Assembly: GCA_010405405.1 (NCBI GenBank)
Contig: MU004240.1
Location: forward strand, 1,436,814 to 1,500,813
Length of the DNA stretch: 64,000 nt
Reading direction: 5' to 3'
Source of the DNA: Microthyrium microscopicum
Lineage: Eukaryota
The translations under genes were made by a program, and so were the position numbers. Positions 43,101 to 52,500 of this stretch are shown here, in pieces. How positions within the stretch are numbered: position 1 is the stretch's first letter; every line of letters starts with the position of its first letter. The notes beneath the pieces are model-generated. The model was not told the origin of the DNA. It saw nothing but the letters and a program-made list of their open reading frames with translations, and made no database searches.

Positions 43101-44199
43101 TTAACGATATGATGTATTCTTTTGCTTGTTTCTGCCTTACGACGTTTCGTACAACGAAAATTCTTGCCTGATCTCTATCCAGTCGGAGCCGAACGCTTCG
43201 TATGAGGTACCGTACATCCATCAGGCTATCCGCCAAGGTACCAATAACTTAATAATGGCTCATATCTAATGCACGATGATACAAAGACATTCTGACTTTT
43301 CATATAAACTATTGTCAACTATCTTTTCTGCATTGCGTTAACTCGCCGCGCGTTAGTGAGATTGCCCTCTTGCAACAACTTTTTCAAGTTTGATACCGAC
43401 CATTATTGCCTCCAATTCACAAACTACTCGGCATAATTTGCTGATTTGCTAATTACGACGTTCTTGTGGCTCTGTTTCGAGATGATGTTGTGTCCCTCAA
43501 AGCCGCCACATTGGCTATCGCCTCCACATGCCGTTTTTGTACTTTCATAGTGGCCAAAAAAACCAAATGGGCAGCGTTAGCAGTTCAATTCCTGCTACCC
43601 ATCGGTTAGGAACACGATCGCCGAAGGCGATCGGGGACAGCTTAACGCTAAGGACAGCTCAACGCTAGATCTATTACTATTATTTAGTTACTTACTAGCT
43701 ATTTATTCATTATGCAATATTTAAAGCTAAAATTAAAGAGGTATATAATTTAGGTTTAGTTCTAAATCCTATATTAGTTTTAGCTTTATAACTTATTAAA
43801 TAAGTCTTTACTATTAATTTCTAGTTAAGTAGTTTTAGACTTAATTAGACTAAAATATATAGAATTTTAAGTATTTCTTTAGGCTACTTACTAACTTTAC
43901 TAGTTATATTTTTCAAAATTTAACTAGAGTATAAATAGATATAATAGAATACTCTATCTAATTTTTATATAATATAATTAATAAGAGAGTTTATTATTAT
44001 ATATGAATATATAAATCTCTTTATTGTCTAGTTTGTTTAGTCCCTATAGGGGTTCCAAACACGCTACTCTAATAGGCGTATATAGACTATACTAACTATT
44101 TATAATAGAAACTCTTAGGAGAATAAAACTACACTATTTGCCCTAGTAGGGCGCTATAGGCGCTCTAGCGTCTATTTATCTATTATAGAACGTTAACCT

Positions 44200-45766
44200 T
44201 GCGGCTATTAATAGGCTATTCTATAAAATGCTTCTACTTCATTTAATCTCCTTCCTACCTATCTAACTCTATCTAAACCTCTTTATCTACTTCCTTAAAC
44301 TCTACTAGGGTTACTAGAACTACTTTAGCAGCCTTATAAATACTTGCTAAAATAGCTATAATAATCTTCCCTCCTAACGCTACTATAGGCACAGCTACGC
44401 CTAAAGGTCTTAGGCAAGTAGGCATAAAGCTAAGGAATTACTATCCTAGAGTAAATCCTACTATAGCTAAGGCTAGAGGCCTTCTAAGGCCTTTTATAGG
44501 GCTAGCTTTTAGTATAGTAACTAGTGTATATTTATCCTTTAGTAATAGGTTTATATTACTATAATCCTATTAAGCTATGCTATTCTATAAGTTAATAATA
44601 CGTTTAAATAGGGTTACTTAGAGGGCGTTTACTACTAAAGCAATACTTTTATAAATATTATAGAATTTGTCCTAATAATTATATTTATAATTATAATTTA
44701 AGTACTATTTATTTTTACCTTTTGTTTTACAATCTCGTATATTATACTTACTTAAATAGTATTTATAGTAAGCTTCTACTAAATAGGAAGACTATATATA
44801 ACCCTAGGTACTATACTAGTAGTAATAGGTACTTACTAGTATTATAGTCTAGAGTTTATAACTATACTATACGCTTTTAATTATTAGCCCTTAGGCTATA
44901 ATAGTCTCTTAGAGACTCTTCGTAAGAAGATATATAATAAAAGATAATCTCTTCTTTCCTAAGATTAACGTCTTATTACTATAAATCTAGCTTACTCTAG
45001 TAATAGTAAGAACGTGCTAGTTATCTTTATTTAGAGCCTTAATAAACTCTAAGTTATAATTATTTACTTTCTTATTATAATAAACTCTATTGCTAATACT
45101 CTTTAAGAGTATGCTAGCTACTTTAATAGAATAATCTTACTAAAGTACTTATATACCTTTAACAGTTAGGTACTAGGCCTAATCCTTCTATTTAGCATCT
45201 TTAAAGATAACTTAAAGATTACTACTCTATAGAAGGTATACGCCTATAGTACCTATAAATATCTTTTTAAGTTCCTTAAGGACCTCTAGAGGAGTTCCTA
45301 TATATTATCTTACCTTAGGTTATAAAATAATAGAATAACCTTTTAGTTTACTTACATATAGTTTAGTATAAGAAGTAATTATTACCTAGGAGTATAGCTT
45401 TAGAGCTAGTATAGTAAAATAACGTTAAATTATTACTTTAATCTTATTAAGCTAATTAAGGATAGTTTTAAGGGAAGTAGGTTTAGGAGTAGGGTATTTA
45501 GCTATTAGAGGCTTTTCTTCTTAATAGAGGACGTAGTCCTTTAGCTTAATAAGCTCCTCTATAGTATTATAGAGGACTTATTTTAAGATAATTATTTCTA
45601 ATCCTTTTTGTATGCCTTTTTATATTCTAGATAAGGATATCCCTACTACGTTAACTATACTAAGTAGTTCTAAAGAGCTATTATTAAGCAAGCTTTCATA
45701 GCTCTTAAAATTAGAGTCTTATTCTTCTATATTTTGGTCGTTTAGTTCTACTATACTTTTAGCTAT
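44200..45766 (-). pseudogene. RIP-inactivated gag/ORF1-like gene (Tad1 LINE-type) with three CCHC zinc knuckles; 3' end approximate
   Basis: One frame runs from 45766 without frameshifts, and all stops are TAA/TAG. Reversing transitions gives K.YSQV, LLRSGDLRV, LRQDYPIEVASVP, ITRVSWIH...GKKRSSFIVYL, GLIIEG, CYQCGTWGHTQSSC (44783-44824), CEYCSGKHDTRDC, CSNC...H..W...C and KGPGRP. Confidence 0.72.
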
Positions 45767-46067
45767 AATAATACTATAGCGTATATAGGCGTCTTACTAA
45801 AAATTTGTAAATATAATCTCTAAGCCTTAGCGAAGGGATTCCGATGGTTTATTTAGATTAAATTGATAAAGTAGTGTAAATTAAGCCGTGTGGGAGCTAA
45901 AGAAGGTCTTAAAGTAAATTAGTTTATTATTATAATAACTAGAAATTCTTAGATATTCTTAAGCTTTAGCCTTCTTAGTAGCCTCTTAGCATCTTAACTA
46001 CTCTCCTATCGATTTACTACTTCTACTATTAACTACTACCTACTTAATAATTTTTATCTCTACTATT

Positions 46068-48540
46068 ATAGCTTCAAAATCGTAATTAAAGAAGTAGAAA
46101 CACTCTAAATTTCTAGCTAAAGAAGCCCTACTTAAAGATACTATTAAATTTTATTAAAAATACCTTAAAATAATATAGAATCAACTTATAAAGAAATTTA
46201 CACCCCTAGGGCTTAATTAGATATATTGTTGCTATCTATAAATATAGATATTATACTTTAAGCATACCCTTACTAATTAAAAGCTCTCTAATAACTAGGA
46301 GGTATTTCTTATAGAATATCTTAATTTAATAACAAAGATTAGTATACCGCTTTATATTAAACTTATTTAGGATATTACTAATAAGATTCTATAATAAGAT
46401 ATTAAAGATTTAGATACAATTCTTTTTAAAAAACAACCTTACGTTAGATCTAAATAGGCTACTTACTAGCTTAAACGTAGTTAATTTACTCTACGCTTTT
46501 AACCTACTATTAAAGCTATAAGAAAGTAAGCTATAGAAAGAGATACTATTAAGTATTTCTATAGAAAGTATAAAAATATTACTACTACTTATAATATCTA
46601 AATTAAAGACTAGTAGAATATAAATAAAATAGGCGTTTAAATTAGTATCAAAAGAGGCTAAATAGTAGTTATACTTAATAATTATAAGTTCTTTAGCTAC
46701 TACTATAACTATATTAAATCTCTTAGTAATTAAGAATTACTTATGTCTATTAAAGCTTATTTTGCTACTAGAAGAACTATTAATCCCTTACTTATTACTA
46801 AAGGGAAGATTATATAGTAATCTTAGTTTAATAGTATTAAATTAGGAAATCTTATAATTAGTAAGTTAATAGGCCTAAAACTAGTAAATCTAAAGTACTA
46901 ATCTTACTATAGTAGTATCTAATACTAGCTATTTAAATAATTATCTAGGATTTATCTAGATATAGTATTTTTAACGTCTTTTAAAGTAATATTAGCTAAA
47001 GGATTACCTATACTAGAAGGCTTGCTAGTAACTCTTAATAATTAATAGATATATAAGCTATCTTACTATATAGTTTATATTATATTATAAGCTTTATAAG
47101 ATAAAGATATTACTTCTTCTACTATATTTAATATACTTCTTATAACTATTAGATATTAGTATCTTTTAACCTTAGAAATACTAGTATATAGAAGAAATTA
47201 ACGTATATATATATTAAGGAATTATTAATTTTAATAGGCTATATCTTCTTAAAGTAATTAAATATATTAGATTAAAAGCTTTTACTAAAAATAATATTAG
47301 ATTAGTATAGAGGTATATAGGAATAGTTCCCTTTAATCTAAAGTTAGTACTAAGTTAAATTCCTATTATAGATCCTTTAAAAGGGCTTAATCTATATAAA
47401 GATTAGAATCCTACTACTAAGTAATTTAGGAAGCGCCCTTAAATACTTAAAGATAAGGAATTACTTATAGTATAGACTACTCTAGAATATCTAAAGTAAT
47501 TTAAATAGCAAACTAGATAAATTAAGCATTATCTTTAATTATTAGTATCTCTAGCACCTCCTATAGTTCGTAAGCAATAATAAGCTAATCTTAAGGTCTT
47601 CCTAGATTATATTACTACGTGTAATAATCTTACTATAATGCTAATTAATTACTACTTTAATTCTTATTTAGCAAGACTTTATAATAAGTTATTAAAGGAT
47701 AAATCTTATAAATAGGTTTAAAAGGGAGAATTTATTTATACTAGTAATGTTAGAGATCGTAATATTATTAATTTAGTAGATATCCTATAGTACTAGCGCT
47801 AAATTAGGCCTTACTTTAGTAATAAATAGCTTCTCTATTAACTCTATCTTTATAACTTTATCTTTCCTTAGTTCTTCCTATATCCTATAATCTAAATAAT
47901 TACTAAAATTGTAAATACTAAGGCTACTATACGCCTATAGAAGTTTACTAAATATAAGAATACTACCCTTTAAAAGGCTTCTTAATAAACTATTACTAAT
48001 AACGAGATTTAGGTTATTAAAGCTATAGTAGTAAAGTAATCTTAGCCTATAGTAGCAAAGGGCTCTTAACCTAAAAAGAGGTATATAAAAGTAAAGAAGA
48101 AAGCAATTCCTAATATTCTAGGGTAGGCTAAATATAATATTTATATTATATAGAAATAGAATAAAGAACTACTTTATCTTAAAGAATCTTAGAAAAGACT
48201 ATAGTAAGATTACTAGGAGAACTATACTAATATTACTAAATTTCCTTACCCTAAGTATAATTATAAGTAAGATATAGCTCTATAGTACTTAGAAACACGC
48301 CTATTATAGTTTAAATTTATACCTATTAACCTATAAATCTCTACTACTAATTCTCTATTAGTATATATATTATATACTAATAATAATAGTAAAGATACTA
48401 TTAATAAGCCTATTAATAGTAAAGATATATTAGAAGATAAAGAACTACTAATAATAGAAGAGTAGATTACTAAAGTAGCTACCTAAACTACTAAGATCTA
48501 TAAAGCTAAAGCTTACGTGCTTTAAATGTAAGAATTTTAG
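46068..48540 (+). pseudogene. RIP-inactivated DDE (pogo/Fot1) transposase; 3' end approximate
   Basis: De-RIP reading gives WNMDETGVRIG at 46614, in frame with a relic start at 46068. A 52-nt intron 46861-46912 (GTAAGT...CTAAT...TAG) restores frame to SDTGYSND..W.QHF, WRLLIIDGH.SH (47026) and LPPHSTHFLQPLDVGIFQP. VQKGG lies near 47716. Confidence 0.88.
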
Positions 48541-49206
48541 TAAAATTTAAAGTCTATTTAATATAGATATTCCTATTTTAGTATTAAAATATAGAGATTT
48601 AACTATTTTATAGTATTTAACTTATAATTATAACTATAGAAGATTACCTCCTAAAATATAATATTAATTACTAAAAATAATACTATAAGTATATTAATAC
48701 TATTAAAATACTTTATAGAAGTTATATTAAATTATATTAACTAGTTATTAAGATATTAATTAATTACTAGTTAAGTAGTAATAAATCTAGCGTTGAGCTA
48801 TCCTTAGCGTTAAGCTGTCCCCAATTGCCTTTGGCGATCGTATTCTTAACCGATGGGTACCTTGGAATACTCCGTTGGAACTAATCCCTTCCTAAAGAGG
48901 TTAACTAGTTCAAATCCTATTTAAGGCCCTTGAACTCAGTTTAAGGACCTTAAACTTGAATTAAATTGACAGGAGGAGCGTTCTTTAACGCTATTAAGCC
49001 TAGCGTTGTCTATCTCTCTTAGCTAAAGAATATTATTTATTAATACCTTTTAACTAGCCTAGCGTTACTCTATTCTAAAAAGGATTAAGGCTTAAGCTAG
49101 GCTTATAAGGCTTAAGCTAAGGACTATTATAGTTTAGTTTTTAGCTTTAGATACCATAATTTAAATTAGAAATAGAGCTAGATTTAAACTACTAACGCTC
49201 CCCAAT

Positions 49207-49579
49207 AGGCAGCGTTAGTAGTTTAATTCCTGCTACCTCAGAATACTTCGTTAGAACTAATTGCTTCCTAAAGAGGTTAACTAGTTCAAATCTTGTTTAA
49301 GGCCCTTAAACTTAGTTTAAGGACCTTAAACTCGAATTAAATTAATAGAAGAAGCATTCTTTAATGCTATTAAGCCTAGCGTTGTCTATCTCTCTTAGCT
49401 AAAGAATATTATTTATTAATACTTTTTGACTAGCCTAGCGTCGCTCTGTTCTAAAAAGAATTAAGGCTTAAGCTAGGCTTATGAGGCTTGAGCTAAGGAC
49501 TATTATAGTTTAGCTCTTAGCTTTGGATACTATAATTCAAATCGGAAACAGAGCTGGATTTGAACTGCTAATGCTCCCC
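49207..49579. mobile_element. MITE copy 2 (373 bp, intact), probably PIF/Harbinger-type
   Basis: About 28-bp imperfect TIRs GGG(C/G)AGCGTTAGCAGTTCAA(A/T)TCC(A/T)GCT, flanked by AAT on both sides (49204-49206, 49580-49582). It differs from copy 1 mostly by transitions. Confidence 0.9.
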
Positions 49580-52500
49580 AATAACTTGCCGCGTGATACA
49601 CCTTCACAAACGGATGGCGCTTTACAAATCATTGAAGATAAAAAAAGCAAAATAGGAGTAAAGTTGATGTGTGGTACAACCTTCGTGGCTTTGGCACTTT
49701 CTCCTGACTAGACTATCTTAAGCTTGCAAATAGGCGATGGTGGAATATTCTCCGATATCCAGTTCAGCCTAGCTGTCTGTGGCTTGGGTCAGGCGTAACT
49801 TAACCGACAACTGCAAAGCCGTTTGGTAAGACCTTACCGTACAGGGATCATGAGGCCTTTTCGTAGGACAGGTGTGGATACTCTGGGGTACGGACAAAGC
49901 TTGTAGATCAGTTCTATGCAGGCGTTTTCGCAAAATGCCAAAAATCCGGTAAAGGTGTGCTGTTGTTCAAGGGTAGAGGAAAAAGTAAAGATAACGAAGT
50001 GCCATGTGCAAGTGATGGTGGAGATAACCATGCCCCTGTTTCTCTGGGGTTCTCCTGAAATTTGTTCAGAGATTCCTCGTGGCAGCACTTTCGAAACCGC
50101 TTGAAGATTGAAGCGAACATATCAGGCCTTGATGTGACGTTGTTGTACATACGCACAATACACTATCATTACGACGTGTGATTCGGGTAATGGCCGATAT
50201 ATCTTCATGCGGAATTTTAAGATCATATATCAAATGGTCAAATACTAGGCAAATCAGTAATTTCAATTGACATTTAAAAGGCTTTCTCTGTATTCTATGT
50301 TGTCCAGTGGTTCTGAAGAACTTTGGACAGAGTTTGATATCGTGACATCAATTTTCTTTATCCTTTAGTCTTCAGCGGTAGATGATTGATAGTAGCTTCT
50401 CACTTCACTTAACCAAAAGCAATGAACTGAAAGAACCTAACAGGTAACAGAGAGCTCAAATGGACGGTAAGATGTTGTATGAGATGCATTAATACGAAAT
50501 AAGTTCATGCCCCGAATTGTGCAAGGTGTAAATTTCAAAACTCAAATCAGCTTCGAATTTTCACTTCCATCAGAGCCTAAAAGCAAGCTGCTTGCATTAT
50601 TAATTACGAGTATTGCCTGGGGCACATTTCAATGGACTACGAATTCAGATGAGCTTGTGAGCTATCAAACAAGAGCCTGATCAAGAGGTTGTCAAGGCCA
50701 TTCCACCAGCATCAACGTACAACGGTACAAGTGTACATCAACGTAGCTTGATGTGGTCTCTGAGAACACTGCCAACTATGATAGTCTAGTATTTAGCAAT
50801 TGCATATATAATATACTCAAACTGTGTAACAGGCTAGGAACTTTTTGAAATTCTATAACAAATGATTCAGCGATTTAATAGACGAACGTTCCTATTGTCA
50901 TTGTATGGTGGACATAGATCATGGACTACTCTATCAGAGCATTTCTTAGTCTAGGTCCACGCATGCAACTATCAATTAAAAGTCTATTCAAGTGTTGAAC
51001 ACATAGGACATTAGGGGATGTTACTCTATCATTGCCCTCTTTGGAGTCATACTCGAAGCTGACTTTAAGTTACTTTCTGACTTGTCCTTAATAGCATCTC
51101 CTGAACATGAGCTTTGAAGCGCAGCAATCAGCCATACTATAGAGATACCAGCCATCTCTTGACTCTGGTGGACGAAAGCAAATACGAACGATCGAAAATA
51201 TTGAAACCAAATATGACTTGCTTCTTGTTTTTGTAGGCTTAACATATGAGGTGATAGCGCATCTTGAAATCCGACATGAAGCTGTGAAAGTTGAAAAGAA
51301 TATAAATAGACGACTTACGTTTGGGAATCATGTACCCCGAAAGTCGGAATGAGGTGTGAAAAAGTATTTAAACTTTATTATTTGGTAAAATGCTGTCCAC
51401 ACTCGTGTTCGGTTTTCCGTGTAAACATTCTGATATCGCAGCAAAGCTTATAGACCACCACCATTGTGTCCAAATCTGCCAGAAATTACACTCGTAATCT
51501 TAGCTATGCTGTTGATGTACATTTATTACTCCTTATCGTGTTGAGCGGAATAAAGTTGAAAATGATATGATGCAGTCTCGTAGATGTGTACAAGAGGACG
51601 ATCAGACCTGATAGCTAGAAGCTGAAAAGCTCTTCTTGATGAGATTATGGATTAGAAGAATTGTTGGGGCCATGTCTCTGAGCTTGGTGTCTATTCCCTC
51701 TACTATACTTGTATGTTCATGTGACTTTCAGGACGAAAGGTCACGACAGAGTGTATAGACTTGGGTCTATTTGTATAAAGGAGCATAGGGGTAGACAATG
51801 ATACTGATTGAAGTGAGAAGAAGACTTAAATTGGAGATAGTTGTTAGCCTTCGAAGACGACACGGATGTAGAGAACGGGCTTGTAAGTTCGAAGTAGGTA
51901 CGACTCCGCCTAAAATGTGGGTGGCCTGCGTGATGTAAATGCGTGTCGAATGTCTTCATCACAAGAGGCGCCACACCTACCTAATATACAAGAACTTTCT
52001 TCAGATGCGAGTGAAAACAGACACACATTGACCAAATTGAAGAAAAGGTTCTTAGTGAGTGGAAAAGGCGGAGAGGGCCTTTGTATCGGCAACATATCGC
52101 TCAAGGGACCATTTAGTCCCCGAATCGCCTATCAAACGACTATCAAAGACCCAACTGGTTACTCAAAGAATTACATATCGCTACTCACCGGTATAGCTGC
52201 GTATCTGGTCGTCGTGGCATCTGGAAAGCGCACTAATTGGGACAGGCCACATACCAGGCCGCAAAACCTACCAGGTCGGCCCCAGCTGCTCAACTCTTCC
52301 TGACTTGTATGATCACATCGCCCAACAGCAACTGGTCGCTCCGCACTCGGTTGAAGTCGCTATTGGTGCGGAGGTTTCACTTATGCAATGTTCGCTGGAA
52401 GCATCGCATGATTTGGGGGTAGACCAGGTATCATACGGACACTGCAGGCGTTTATGATCAGATGCAGTTCTAGAATCAGATTGATTCGTCCAACCATGTT

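Follow-up and report, generated by a model that had tools for sequence, protein, structure and literature searches.

The forward strand of Microthyrium microscopicum contig MU004240.1 raises the question of how a LINE-type ORF1 (gag) gene came to lie head-to-head with a DNA transposase gene inside a single pair of terminal inverted repeats (TIRs). The original prediction, made on the window (the whole stretch of 64,000 nucleotides analyzed here), was that of a two-gene cut-and-paste element which had captured the ORF1 gene. The locus looks rather like an ordinary nesting of mobile elements, and in our opinion it probably consists of a dead pair, an ORF1-only LINE inside a pogo/Fot1-type transposon, all of it mutated by RIP, the fungal repeat-induced point mutation process (C>T and G>A).

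Borders and target site of the element

The element occupies positions 43598–48857 (5,260 bp), with terminal inverted repeats of 82–84 nt and a duplicated TA. The left TIR (43598–43679, plus strand) and the right TIR (48776–48857, minus strand) are both bordered by TA (43596–43597 and 48858–48859), and when TA is included the repeat search gives an 84-nt pair (43596–43679 and 48776–48859) showing 92% complementarity. An uninterrupted paralog of the target site, carrying a single TA at 49234–49235, was found by blastn 350 bp downstream of the element, in the next unit of a tandem repeat of about 376 bp (49201–49536, plus strand). The left flank (43563–43597) matches 49201–49235 (35 nt, 88.6% identity) and the right flank (48858–49160) matches 49234–49536 (303 nt, 90.4% identity), the two matches overlapping by exactly the TA. 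Since the TIRs, the TA on both sides and the joining of the two flanks at one TA in the empty-site paralog concur, the ends of the element are fixed, and the single TIR pair and single TA duplication originally described were confirmed. Contigs from the same sample part from the window sequence exactly at 43596 and at 48859.

The interior of the element is strongly RIP-like: its GC content is 0.18–0.34 (0.47 in the unique flank), its TpA/ApT ratio 1.4–2.1 (0.70) and its (CpA+TpG)/(ApC+GpT) ratio 0.08–0.46 (1.34). Preservation is best in the TIRs (GC 0.44–0.52), and the left one, in view of its GC content of 0.52, was largely spared by RIP. The left subterminal arm (43680–43987; GC 0.18, RIP indices 1.62 and 0.17) is non-coding and RIP-mutated, and showed no protein homology in any frame.

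The probable ORF1-only LINE and its relatives

On the minus strand, an unbroken frame runs from 45766 to about 44234 (about 510 codons) and contains 39 RIP-type stop codons and no frameshift. This relic gave 10 phmmer matches (best E 2.3e-19, against 1.84e9 representatives), is colinear end to end with 14 intact homologues, and reached z=55 in a RIP-tolerant alignment with the ORF1 of locus L007; one of its homologues is a Podosphaera (powdery mildew) protein. Reversion of C>T and G>A changes led to the consensus residue in 68 of the 72 conserved columns, as compared with a mean of 14.6 and a maximum of 25 columns in the permuted-codon control. The three CCHC zinc knuckles (44660–44824, minus strand) now consist of Tyr or Cys codons (TAT, TAC or TGT) in 12/12 zinc-ligand columns, all of which revert to Cys or His. 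The gag motifs invoked in the original prediction occur in the homologues (LRSGDIRVV, LRQDYPVEV, W(I/L)HG, three CCHC knuckles and GRP), and the ORF1p layout comprises a coiled coil and two RRM-like domains in addition to the knuckles. Judging from its sequence, the minus-strand gene is, as was proposed, a LINE ORF1/gag with three zinc knuckles, and its product is predicted to be a nucleic-acid-binding gag-like protein.

The assignment of this family to the LINE ORF1s is based on its neighbours: in the metagenome loci, the downstream-adjacent ORFs carry Exo_endo_phos and RVT_1 in all 14 cases tested, and ORF2 homology is present in 59 of the 80 loci. The seven loci scoring highest with the window protein are without ORF2 (69–103 bits, versus ≤46 bits in the case of ORF2-linked ORF1s), while the more distant relatives adjoin an endonuclease/RT ORF2 on its upstream side. 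The sequences of L001 and L002 show 99.5% identity, confined to 1,707 bp, outside which their flanks differ; four contigs share one 5′ end and have four different upstream sequences; and L001, L002, L005, L006, and L007 have tails of the (AAT)n type. A clear target duplication was found in one of the two complete metagenome copies, namely L001 (14 bp) and not L002; the 5′UTR of L001 is 149 nt long (it begins at position 117, the ATG being at 266). The 3′UTR box of the ORF1-only elements also occurs in autonomous, ORF2-bearing relatives. A pogo transposase was present in none of the seven ORF1-only loci and in 4 of the 80 loci overall, all of which are ORF2-linked or TE-dense. The nearest relatives of the window gene are thus ORF1-only retroelements, retrotransposing as units of about 1.7 kb with UTRs of their own.

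The unit in the window (44002–45920, minus strand) has a comparable anatomy. Its stop-to-end distance is about 233 nt (about 205–240 nt in the ORF1-only family), and its 3′UTR with the TA/TAA-rich 3′ end (44002–44233) aligns with the 3′UTRs of L001, L004, L005, and L006. In a transition-tolerant alignment with 16 LINE 3′UTR ends, the summed score was 989, a value reached by none of 300 shuffles (mean 666, sd 48) and none of 354 control windows. This homology emerges only under scoring tolerant of RIP transitions, and a plain nhmmer search with the 3′UTR motif gave no match in the window. The 5′UTR (45767–45920) is 154 nt long, as against 149 nt in L001; since no similarity to the family 5′UTRs was detected, the 5′ border of the unit is set by a direct repeat alone. 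This 14-nt repeat, AGTTTATTATTATA, flanks the unit in two identical copies (43988–44001 and 45921–45934) and is a candidate LINE target duplication; when 3000 random pairs of 120-nt windows were drawn from this RIP-mutated element as a control, 13 of them shared a run of at least 14 nt. The repeat is a low-complexity, AT-rich sequence that overlaps the possible TAA-type tail of the LINE, so that fewer than 14 nt may actually be duplicated. Between the ORF1 stop and the inner TIR edge there are about 554 nt, which bears out the earlier remark that there is no room for an ORF2, and three ORF2 queries in six frames gave nothing above null (positive controls in this test: ORF1, z=55; transposase, z=14).

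The transposase relic

On the plus strand, the sequence 45935–46067 (RIP indices 2.08 and 0.08) is, from its position, the putative pogo leader upstream of the proposed transposase start. The relic of a pogo-type DDE_1 transposase is recognizable in its catalytic core (47029–47355), which was detected by tblastn with the DDE_1 ORF of L032 (E 1.6e-4), by RIP-tolerant alignment (z=14.2 with L032 and z=7.6 with L045) and with a profile from 60 pogo transposases (E 5.2e-8, profile positions 273–383 of 621). Profile members from Talaromyces and Pyrenophora bear the NCBI name "pogo transposable element" and contain PF03184 and PF03221. The proposed N-terminal half (46068–47028), in which a DNA-binding domain and the first catalytic Asp were tentatively read by eye in frame 0, gave nothing above null in the frame scan, and the frame-0 profile match at 46281–46394 was non-significant (E 0.41, profile positions 56–93). 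The significant match has a frame coordinate mod 3 of 1, whereas frame 0 holds the by-eye N-terminal motifs and the start proposed at 46068; since the core and the start are in different frames, the relic likely carries at least one frame change. The two frames were originally described as free of frameshifts, which holds for the minus-strand gene and is doubtful for the plus-strand one. The identification of the latter as a pogo/Fot1-type DDE transposase is sound as regards the core at 47029–47355, the only part that the tools detected; the stop-masked translations matched no Pfam family in any of five cases (E≤10). In the remaining transposase relic and right subterminal region (47356–48775; GC 0.22), no significant matches were obtained in any frame.

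The TIRs, TA duplication and DDE_1-type core resemble those of fungal pogo/Fot1 transposons of the Tc1-mariner group. Fot1 elements typically measure roughly 2 kb, whereas the present element measures about 3.3 kb even without the LINE, and on its right-hand side about 1.1–1.4 kb are unaccounted for. RIP obscures the catalytic triad and the N-terminal domain, and the placement in the Fot1 subfamily is putative.

Probable nesting of two mobile elements and the alternatives

The proposal that a pogo/Fot1 element acquired the LINE ORF1 as a functional passenger, active in anti-silencing or as a chaperone, and now spreads together with it accounts for the head-to-head arrangement inside one TIR pair and one TA duplication, and ORF1 was indeed intact before RIP (full length, single frame, restorable zinc ligands), but an intact ORF1 would be expected of any young copy in such a family. 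The segment has a retroelement 5′UTR and a LINE-type 3′UTR followed by a TA/TAA-rich tail, and is flanked by the 14-nt repeat, which argues for the insertion of a whole retroelement and not for gene capture. Its closest relatives are retroelements that stand alone and carry ORF1 only, and none of the seven has a transposase nearby. The original argument was that LINE insertions usually lose ORF1 and keep ORF2; since this premise conflicts with the existence of these ORF1-only relatives, capture is not supported. Diverged contigs from the same sample cover 45393–45876 and 45942–46342, near both sides of the LINE/pogo junction, and ends of the element also occur there next to other flanks, so that composite copies elsewhere are conceivable, but a second such copy was not demonstrated, nor was, in the same genome, a pogo copy lacking the LINE or a solitary copy of this LINE. 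We therefore regard a functional passenger as very unlikely.

The nested composite might also have been mobilised or duplicated as a whole by a transposase supplied in trans, ORF1 being a hitch-hiker with no selected role. This would fit the good preservation of the TIRs and the RIP mutation of all the internal parts, including the short arms beside the LINE, RIP requiring duplicated DNA; RIP can, however, extend from duplicated into neighbouring DNA. The same-sample contigs hold diverged copies of every part of the element, and their summed depth in the junction-proximal bins is about 2–5 times that of the unique flank, depth not being equivalent to copy number. None of the contigs bridged or skipped either LINE/pogo junction among the 15 of 25 joints and 24 of 356 loose ends listed, and one contig that links 46269 with 48789, the two lying on opposite strands, suggests shorter or rearranged variants instead of uniform composites. 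Mobilisation of the composite is possible, though on the whole rather unlikely. Lastly, a full two-ORF LINE might have inserted and then lost ORF2 in place by internal deletion, as the 3′UTR motif shared with autonomous relatives would allow; given the higher scores with the ORF1-only lineage, the stop-to-3′-end spacing typical of that family and the failure to find any ORF2 remnant with the queries used, this is highly improbable.

ORF1s of fungal Tad1/CgT1-like LINEs, according to PMC4641428, have a C-terminal Cys-rich zf-CCHC nucleic-acid-binding part and lie upstream of the RT ORF2; in the family studied here, the ORF2s carry endonuclease and RT in 14/14 cases, and membership of the window LINE in the Tad1 clade is putative. 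The same paper describes many copies of ORF1-derived sequence without ORF2, in the Blumeria families Satine, Kryze, and EKA. The EKA genes are truncated ORF1 parts co-opted as effectors, whereas the window copy has a full-length ORF1 and retroelement ends, is RIP-dead, and nothing suggests its co-option. Another parallel is HAL1 (half-L1), the non-autonomous derivative of mammalian LINE-1, which according to PMC5753468 encodes only ORF1p and arose several times; no paper on a fungal equivalent appeared among those listed in the literature search. HAL1 depends on its partner's ORF2p. The metagenome relatives likewise encode ORF1p alone and would need such a partner; they are units of about 1.7 kb that possess UTRs, a tail and a target duplication, and nearly identical copies of them occupy different sites. 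They differ from HAL1 in their fungal host, in their ORF1 (of the RRM and CCHC type, not the L1 type), in their (AAT)n/(TA)n instead of poly(A) tails and in the 3′UTR box shared with autonomous partners. The link with HAL1 is one of analogy, not homology.

In the nesting that we think probable, a pogo/Fot1-type transposon of about 3.3 kb with 82-nt TIRs inserted at a TA inside the tandem repeat, and a complete non-autonomous LINE of 1.9 kb lies antisense in its leader, with the left arm on one side and the start of the transposase on the other. How the half-LINE came in, and which of the elements inserted first, is inferred: target-primed reverse transcription is the most likely route, it would have generated a direct repeat not exceeding 14 nt, and the endonuclease/RT would have been provided in trans by an autonomous partner LINE. 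RIP then hit all the parts, leaving nothing functional at the present time.

Element borders and the two relic genes

The composite element (43598-48857) consists of a pogo-type transposon, with its gene on the plus strand, enclosing an antisense ORF1-only LINE unit (44002-45920, minus strand). A repeat search located its terminal inverted repeats (TIRs) at 43596-43679 and 48776-48859: they measure 84 nt including the TA and are 92% complementary, and TA is present at either edge of the element. The end of the left flank (43563-43597, 35 nt) matches 49201-49235, and the start of the right flank (48858-49160, 303 nt) matches 49234-49536. Since these two matches have precisely the TA in common, the adjacent unit of a tandem repeat of approximately 376 bp corresponds to the empty site, which carries a single TA and gives independent confirmation of the borders. 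The 5,260 bp were inserted at one TA, or derive from an earlier entrant there. The transposon is located at the junction of this tandem repeat (48858-49609, and 43563-43597), two units of which (48858-49233 and 49234-49609) show about 90% similarity to each other and differ in a RIP-like manner. The GC content is lowered (0.38-0.41) in the region extending to about 52000, where further inverted repeats occur (48906-48965 / 49285-49344).

The GC content ranges from 0.18 to 0.34 inside the element, versus about 0.47 outside; the TpA/ApT index amounts to 1.4-2.1 versus 0.70 in the unique flank, and the (CpA+TpG)/(ApC+GpT) index to 0.08-0.46 versus 1.34. These values are the signature of repeat-induced point mutation (RIP; C>T, G>A), by which the TIRs are less affected than the interior. 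No second copy of the element was found within the 64-kb window.

On the minus strand, the frame with the fewest stop codons (39) starts at 45766 and runs for about 510 codons to approximately 44234 without any frameshift, in agreement with the start originally predicted. When the two relic genes were translated with their stop codons masked, Pfam yielded no family at E<=10 for any of the five translations. A phmmer search against 1.84 billion representative proteins gave 10 matches at E<=1e-3, the best of which had E-values of 2.3e-19 and 2.0e-16. These homologues are intact, reaching 445-468 residues; all of them are unnamed or annotated as "hypothetical", two are from Podosphaera aphanis, and none contains a Pfam domain above threshold. 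The motifs described in the original prediction are present in the intact proteins (LRSGDIRVV, LRQDYPVEV, W(I/L)HG, three CCHC knuckles, and GRP), the three knuckles being invariant across the family. The relic is colinear with 14 homologues over the whole span between the initial Met and the C-terminal D-x-M-E-E. In the 72 columns showing at least 80% consensus among the aligned homologues, the window residue is identical to the consensus in 24, and in 68 the consensus residue is restored when C>T or G>A changes are undone, as compared with a mean of 14.6 and a maximum of 25 in a permuted-codon control (1000 trials) and with 24 in an opposite-change control. All 12 zinc-ligand codons are TAT, TAC, or TGT, which revert to Cys or His. 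These reversions imply that the gene was whole before RIP, which accounts for nearly all the visible damage in the relic. The homologues, the colinear alignment, and the ligand reversions bear out the initial identification of this gene as a LINE ORF1/gag gene with zinc knuckles.

Structure modeling and a Foldseek search were performed on the intact homologue P0008 rather than on the RIP-mutated copy. The model (mean pLDDT 67) comprises helices at the N terminus, a pair of beta-alpha-beta domains (pLDDT about 75-89), and a long helix at the C terminus. The best Foldseek matches were tandem-RRM proteins (E 2.5e-5), and the predicted fold of P0008 is of the RRM RNA-binding type.

On the plus strand, the segment 47029-47355 (frame coordinate mod 3 = 1) produced matches with the DDE_1 ORF of the metagenome locus L032 (tblastn E 1.6e-4; RIP-tolerant z=14.2), as well as loci L045, L068, and L033. 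A profile of 60 transposases carrying PF03184 and PF03221, some of which are named "pogo transposable element", matches the same segment with an E-value of 5.2e-8 (profile positions 273-383 of 621). The prediction of a pogo/Fot1 DDE transposase therefore holds for this DDE_1-type core, on which profile, tblastn, and RIP-tolerant alignment agree. The N-terminal half gave nothing significant with four single queries or with the family consensus; a weak, non-significant profile match (E 0.41) occurs at 46281-46394 in frame 0, where motifs of a putative N-terminal CENP-B/Tc5-type helix-turn-helix DNA-binding domain were read by eye only. Since the core and this weak signal are in different frames, a change of frame between approximately 46,800 and 47,029 is likely. 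The catalytic D,D,D/E codons have been altered by RIP, and no close unmutated relative emerged when the transposase relic (P0004) was used as query in a word-indexed search of the longer proteins. About 1.4 kb of further element sequence lies to the right of the core.

ORF1-only relatives in metagenome loci

The family alignment was used to scan metagenome contigs, in which 135 relatives were confirmed and 80 loci kept. In distant relatives (30-41% identity to P0008), the ORF1 homologue is directly followed by an ORF of about 1,120-1,240 codons, and Exo_endo_phos and RVT_1 domains were detected in all 14 of the downstream ORFs tested; ORF2 homology was found in 59 of the 80 loci. The family is therefore a LINE ORF1 family, which we presume, as did the original prediction, to be of the Tad1 type.

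When the window relic was scored against every plus-strand ORF in the 80 loci, the highest-ranking seven were L007, L001, L002, L003, L005, L006, and L004 (69-103 bits), as against 46 bits for the best ORF2-linked ORF1. ORF2 is absent downstream of ORF1 in all seven, where the downstream sequence amounts to 571 (L007), 1248 (L001), 1169 (L002), 307 (L005), and 497 nt (L006), L004 and L003 being uninformative on this point because they extend only 158 nt and 1 nt, respectively. The 3' fragment of ORF2 present upstream in L007 comes from a neighbouring LINE. At this locus (L007:5-1250), the ORF1-only element lies directly 3' of another LINE's 3' end and its trinucleotide-repeat tail, an arrangement which suggests head-to-tail insertion into TAA/TTA-type repeats.

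The identity between L001 and L002 (99.5%) is confined to 1,707 bp, their flanks being unrelated, and one 5' end is common to L001, L002, L003, and L008, which have four different upstream sequences. Runs of (AAT)n/(TA)n form the 3' ends of L001, L002, L005, L006, and L007; a target duplication of 14 bp is present at L001 and none at L002. The last 100 nt or so of the 3'UTR constitute a conserved box, which also precedes a similar tail in autonomous two-ORF elements. The nearest relatives of the window relic are ORF1-only, non-autonomous LINEs.

The 3' box (about 90-100 nt) was observed at L001:1709-1806, L012:5171-5270, L031:5069-5158, and 11 other loci, and consists of GGTTTTCC, GGTTTTTCC, CATGGACC, GGGACCGAA, and TAAATAGA, in that order, with (AAT)n after them. 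The box is a possible recognition signal for the reverse transcriptase; RNAalifold gave no consensus structure for it. Downstream of the L001 element, about 50 nt of GC-rich sequence recur in inverted orientation (L001:2441-2500 / 2790-2842) and may correspond to the ends of a small TIR element.

Nesting or capture

The original prediction was that the minus gene was a passenger captured by a two-gene cut-and-paste element. The segment bears retroelement ends of its own, an outcome that the original prediction had itself named as refuting it, and the capture of a gene is not needed in order to explain it. On the minus strand, 233 nt separate the stop codon (approximately 44234) from a TA/TAA-rich end at 44002, as compared with about 205-240 nt in the family, and this 3'UTR aligns with those of L001, L004, L005, and L006. 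In a RIP-tolerant scoring procedure (C>T and G>A tolerated), the 3'UTRs of L001, L005, L006, L029, and L031 each beat 300/300 shuffles and 354/354 control windows; the score summed over 16 queries was 989 versus 666 +/- 48 in the shuffles, and none of the 354 control windows reached 989. Plain nhmmer with the 3'UTR profile found no match in the window, a blastn comparison between the element and the 80 metagenome loci was limited to short matches at the level of chance, and the comparison of the 5'UTR with the family gave no signal. An exact 14-nt direct repeat, AGTTTATTATTATA, is present at 43988-44001, directly after the 3' end, and at 45921-45934, 154 nt 5' of the start codon (the L001 5'UTR measures 149 nt). 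Among 3000 pairs of 120-nt segments drawn at random from this element, 13 shared a run of at least 14 nt; the repeat is low in complexity and possibly includes part of the tail. It is a candidate target-site duplication flanking the LINE unit. The TA/TAA-rich end resembles the family tails, and since it overlaps the direct repeat, tail and duplication are inseparable. RIP-tolerant alignment of three ORF2 proteins in six frames detected no ORF2 relic above the null, the positive controls reaching z=55 for ORF1 and z=14 for the transposase. The segment has the anatomy of a whole ORF1-only retroelement, with its UTRs, tail-like end, and flanking repeat, oriented antisense to the pogo-type transposon in whose leader it is located.

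Contigs from four sequencing runs of one sample (X1-X4), all four of which contain the stretch, were compared with the window at 80% identity. Every part of the element, the LINE unit among them, is represented in numerous diverged contigs, which show transitions in both directions. Contigs depart from the window precisely at 43596 and 48859 and continue into discordant flanks, which indicates that elements having such ends occupy other sites. Among the contigs listed, none bridges or skips either LINE/pogo junction, and none of the joints listed (15 of 25) skips from 44001 to 45921. In run X1 the unique flank has a depth of 104, whereas ORF1 reaches 500-670 and the interval 45821-46254 reaches 200-270; depth is not a copy number, and nothing is therefore deduced from these differences. 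In the metagenome, a pogo transposase was found in four of the 80 loci (L032, L033, L045, and L068) and in none of the seven ORF1-only loci; none was recognisable in the 4.5 kb upstream of L003. It seems improbable that the composite kept working TIRs after the half-LINE (an ORF1-only, non-autonomous LINE) had landed and spread as a unit. If it did, the genome would hold a cut-and-paste family whose members carry an intact LINE RNA-chaperone gene divergent from the transposase; such natural chimeras of DNA transposon and retroelement could be subject to selection for a passenger function.

The locus is best read as an ordinary nesting of mobile elements in a RIP-mutated island: the half-LINE would have entered the leader of the transposon by retrotransposition in trans, and RIP explains the present state. 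There is nothing functional at the locus now.

Some contigs showed other arrangements. In each run (X1-X4), one contig connects 46269 with 48789, the two sides being on opposite strands, and two contigs with loose ends at 43664 share the outer 67 nt or so of the TIR and are then unlike the window. These contigs may represent either a related element that has identical ends or a copy that was rearranged or shortened. In L045 (483-2444 and 3414-5154) and L032 (3-980 and 1071-5926), a pogo-type transposase ORF lies just upstream of a two-ORF LINE on the same strand, with a gap of only 90 nt in L032. This adjacency may reflect nesting in DNA dense in transposable elements, or a target preference.

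ORF1-only LINEs in fungi

The result at this locus is deflationary, since what looked like the capture of a gag gene by a DNA transposon is most readily explained as plain nesting. A useful by-product is the finding that fungal LINEs of the type seen here possess small ORF1-only derivatives, in which the gene is intact, copies at separate sites are nearly identical, and the 3'UTR box is the one carried by the autonomous partners. By analogy, these are the fungal counterpart of mammalian HAL1, which "encodes only ORF1p" (PMC5753468). A related precedent for ORF1-derived sequences is provided by Blumeria, with its ORF1-derived families originating from the Satine and Kryze LINEs (PMC4641428). 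ORF1-only elements are a plausible source of families such as EKA in powdery mildews (PMC4641428). For annotators, a clean ORF1 without an ORF2 need not imply capture, deletion, or domestication.
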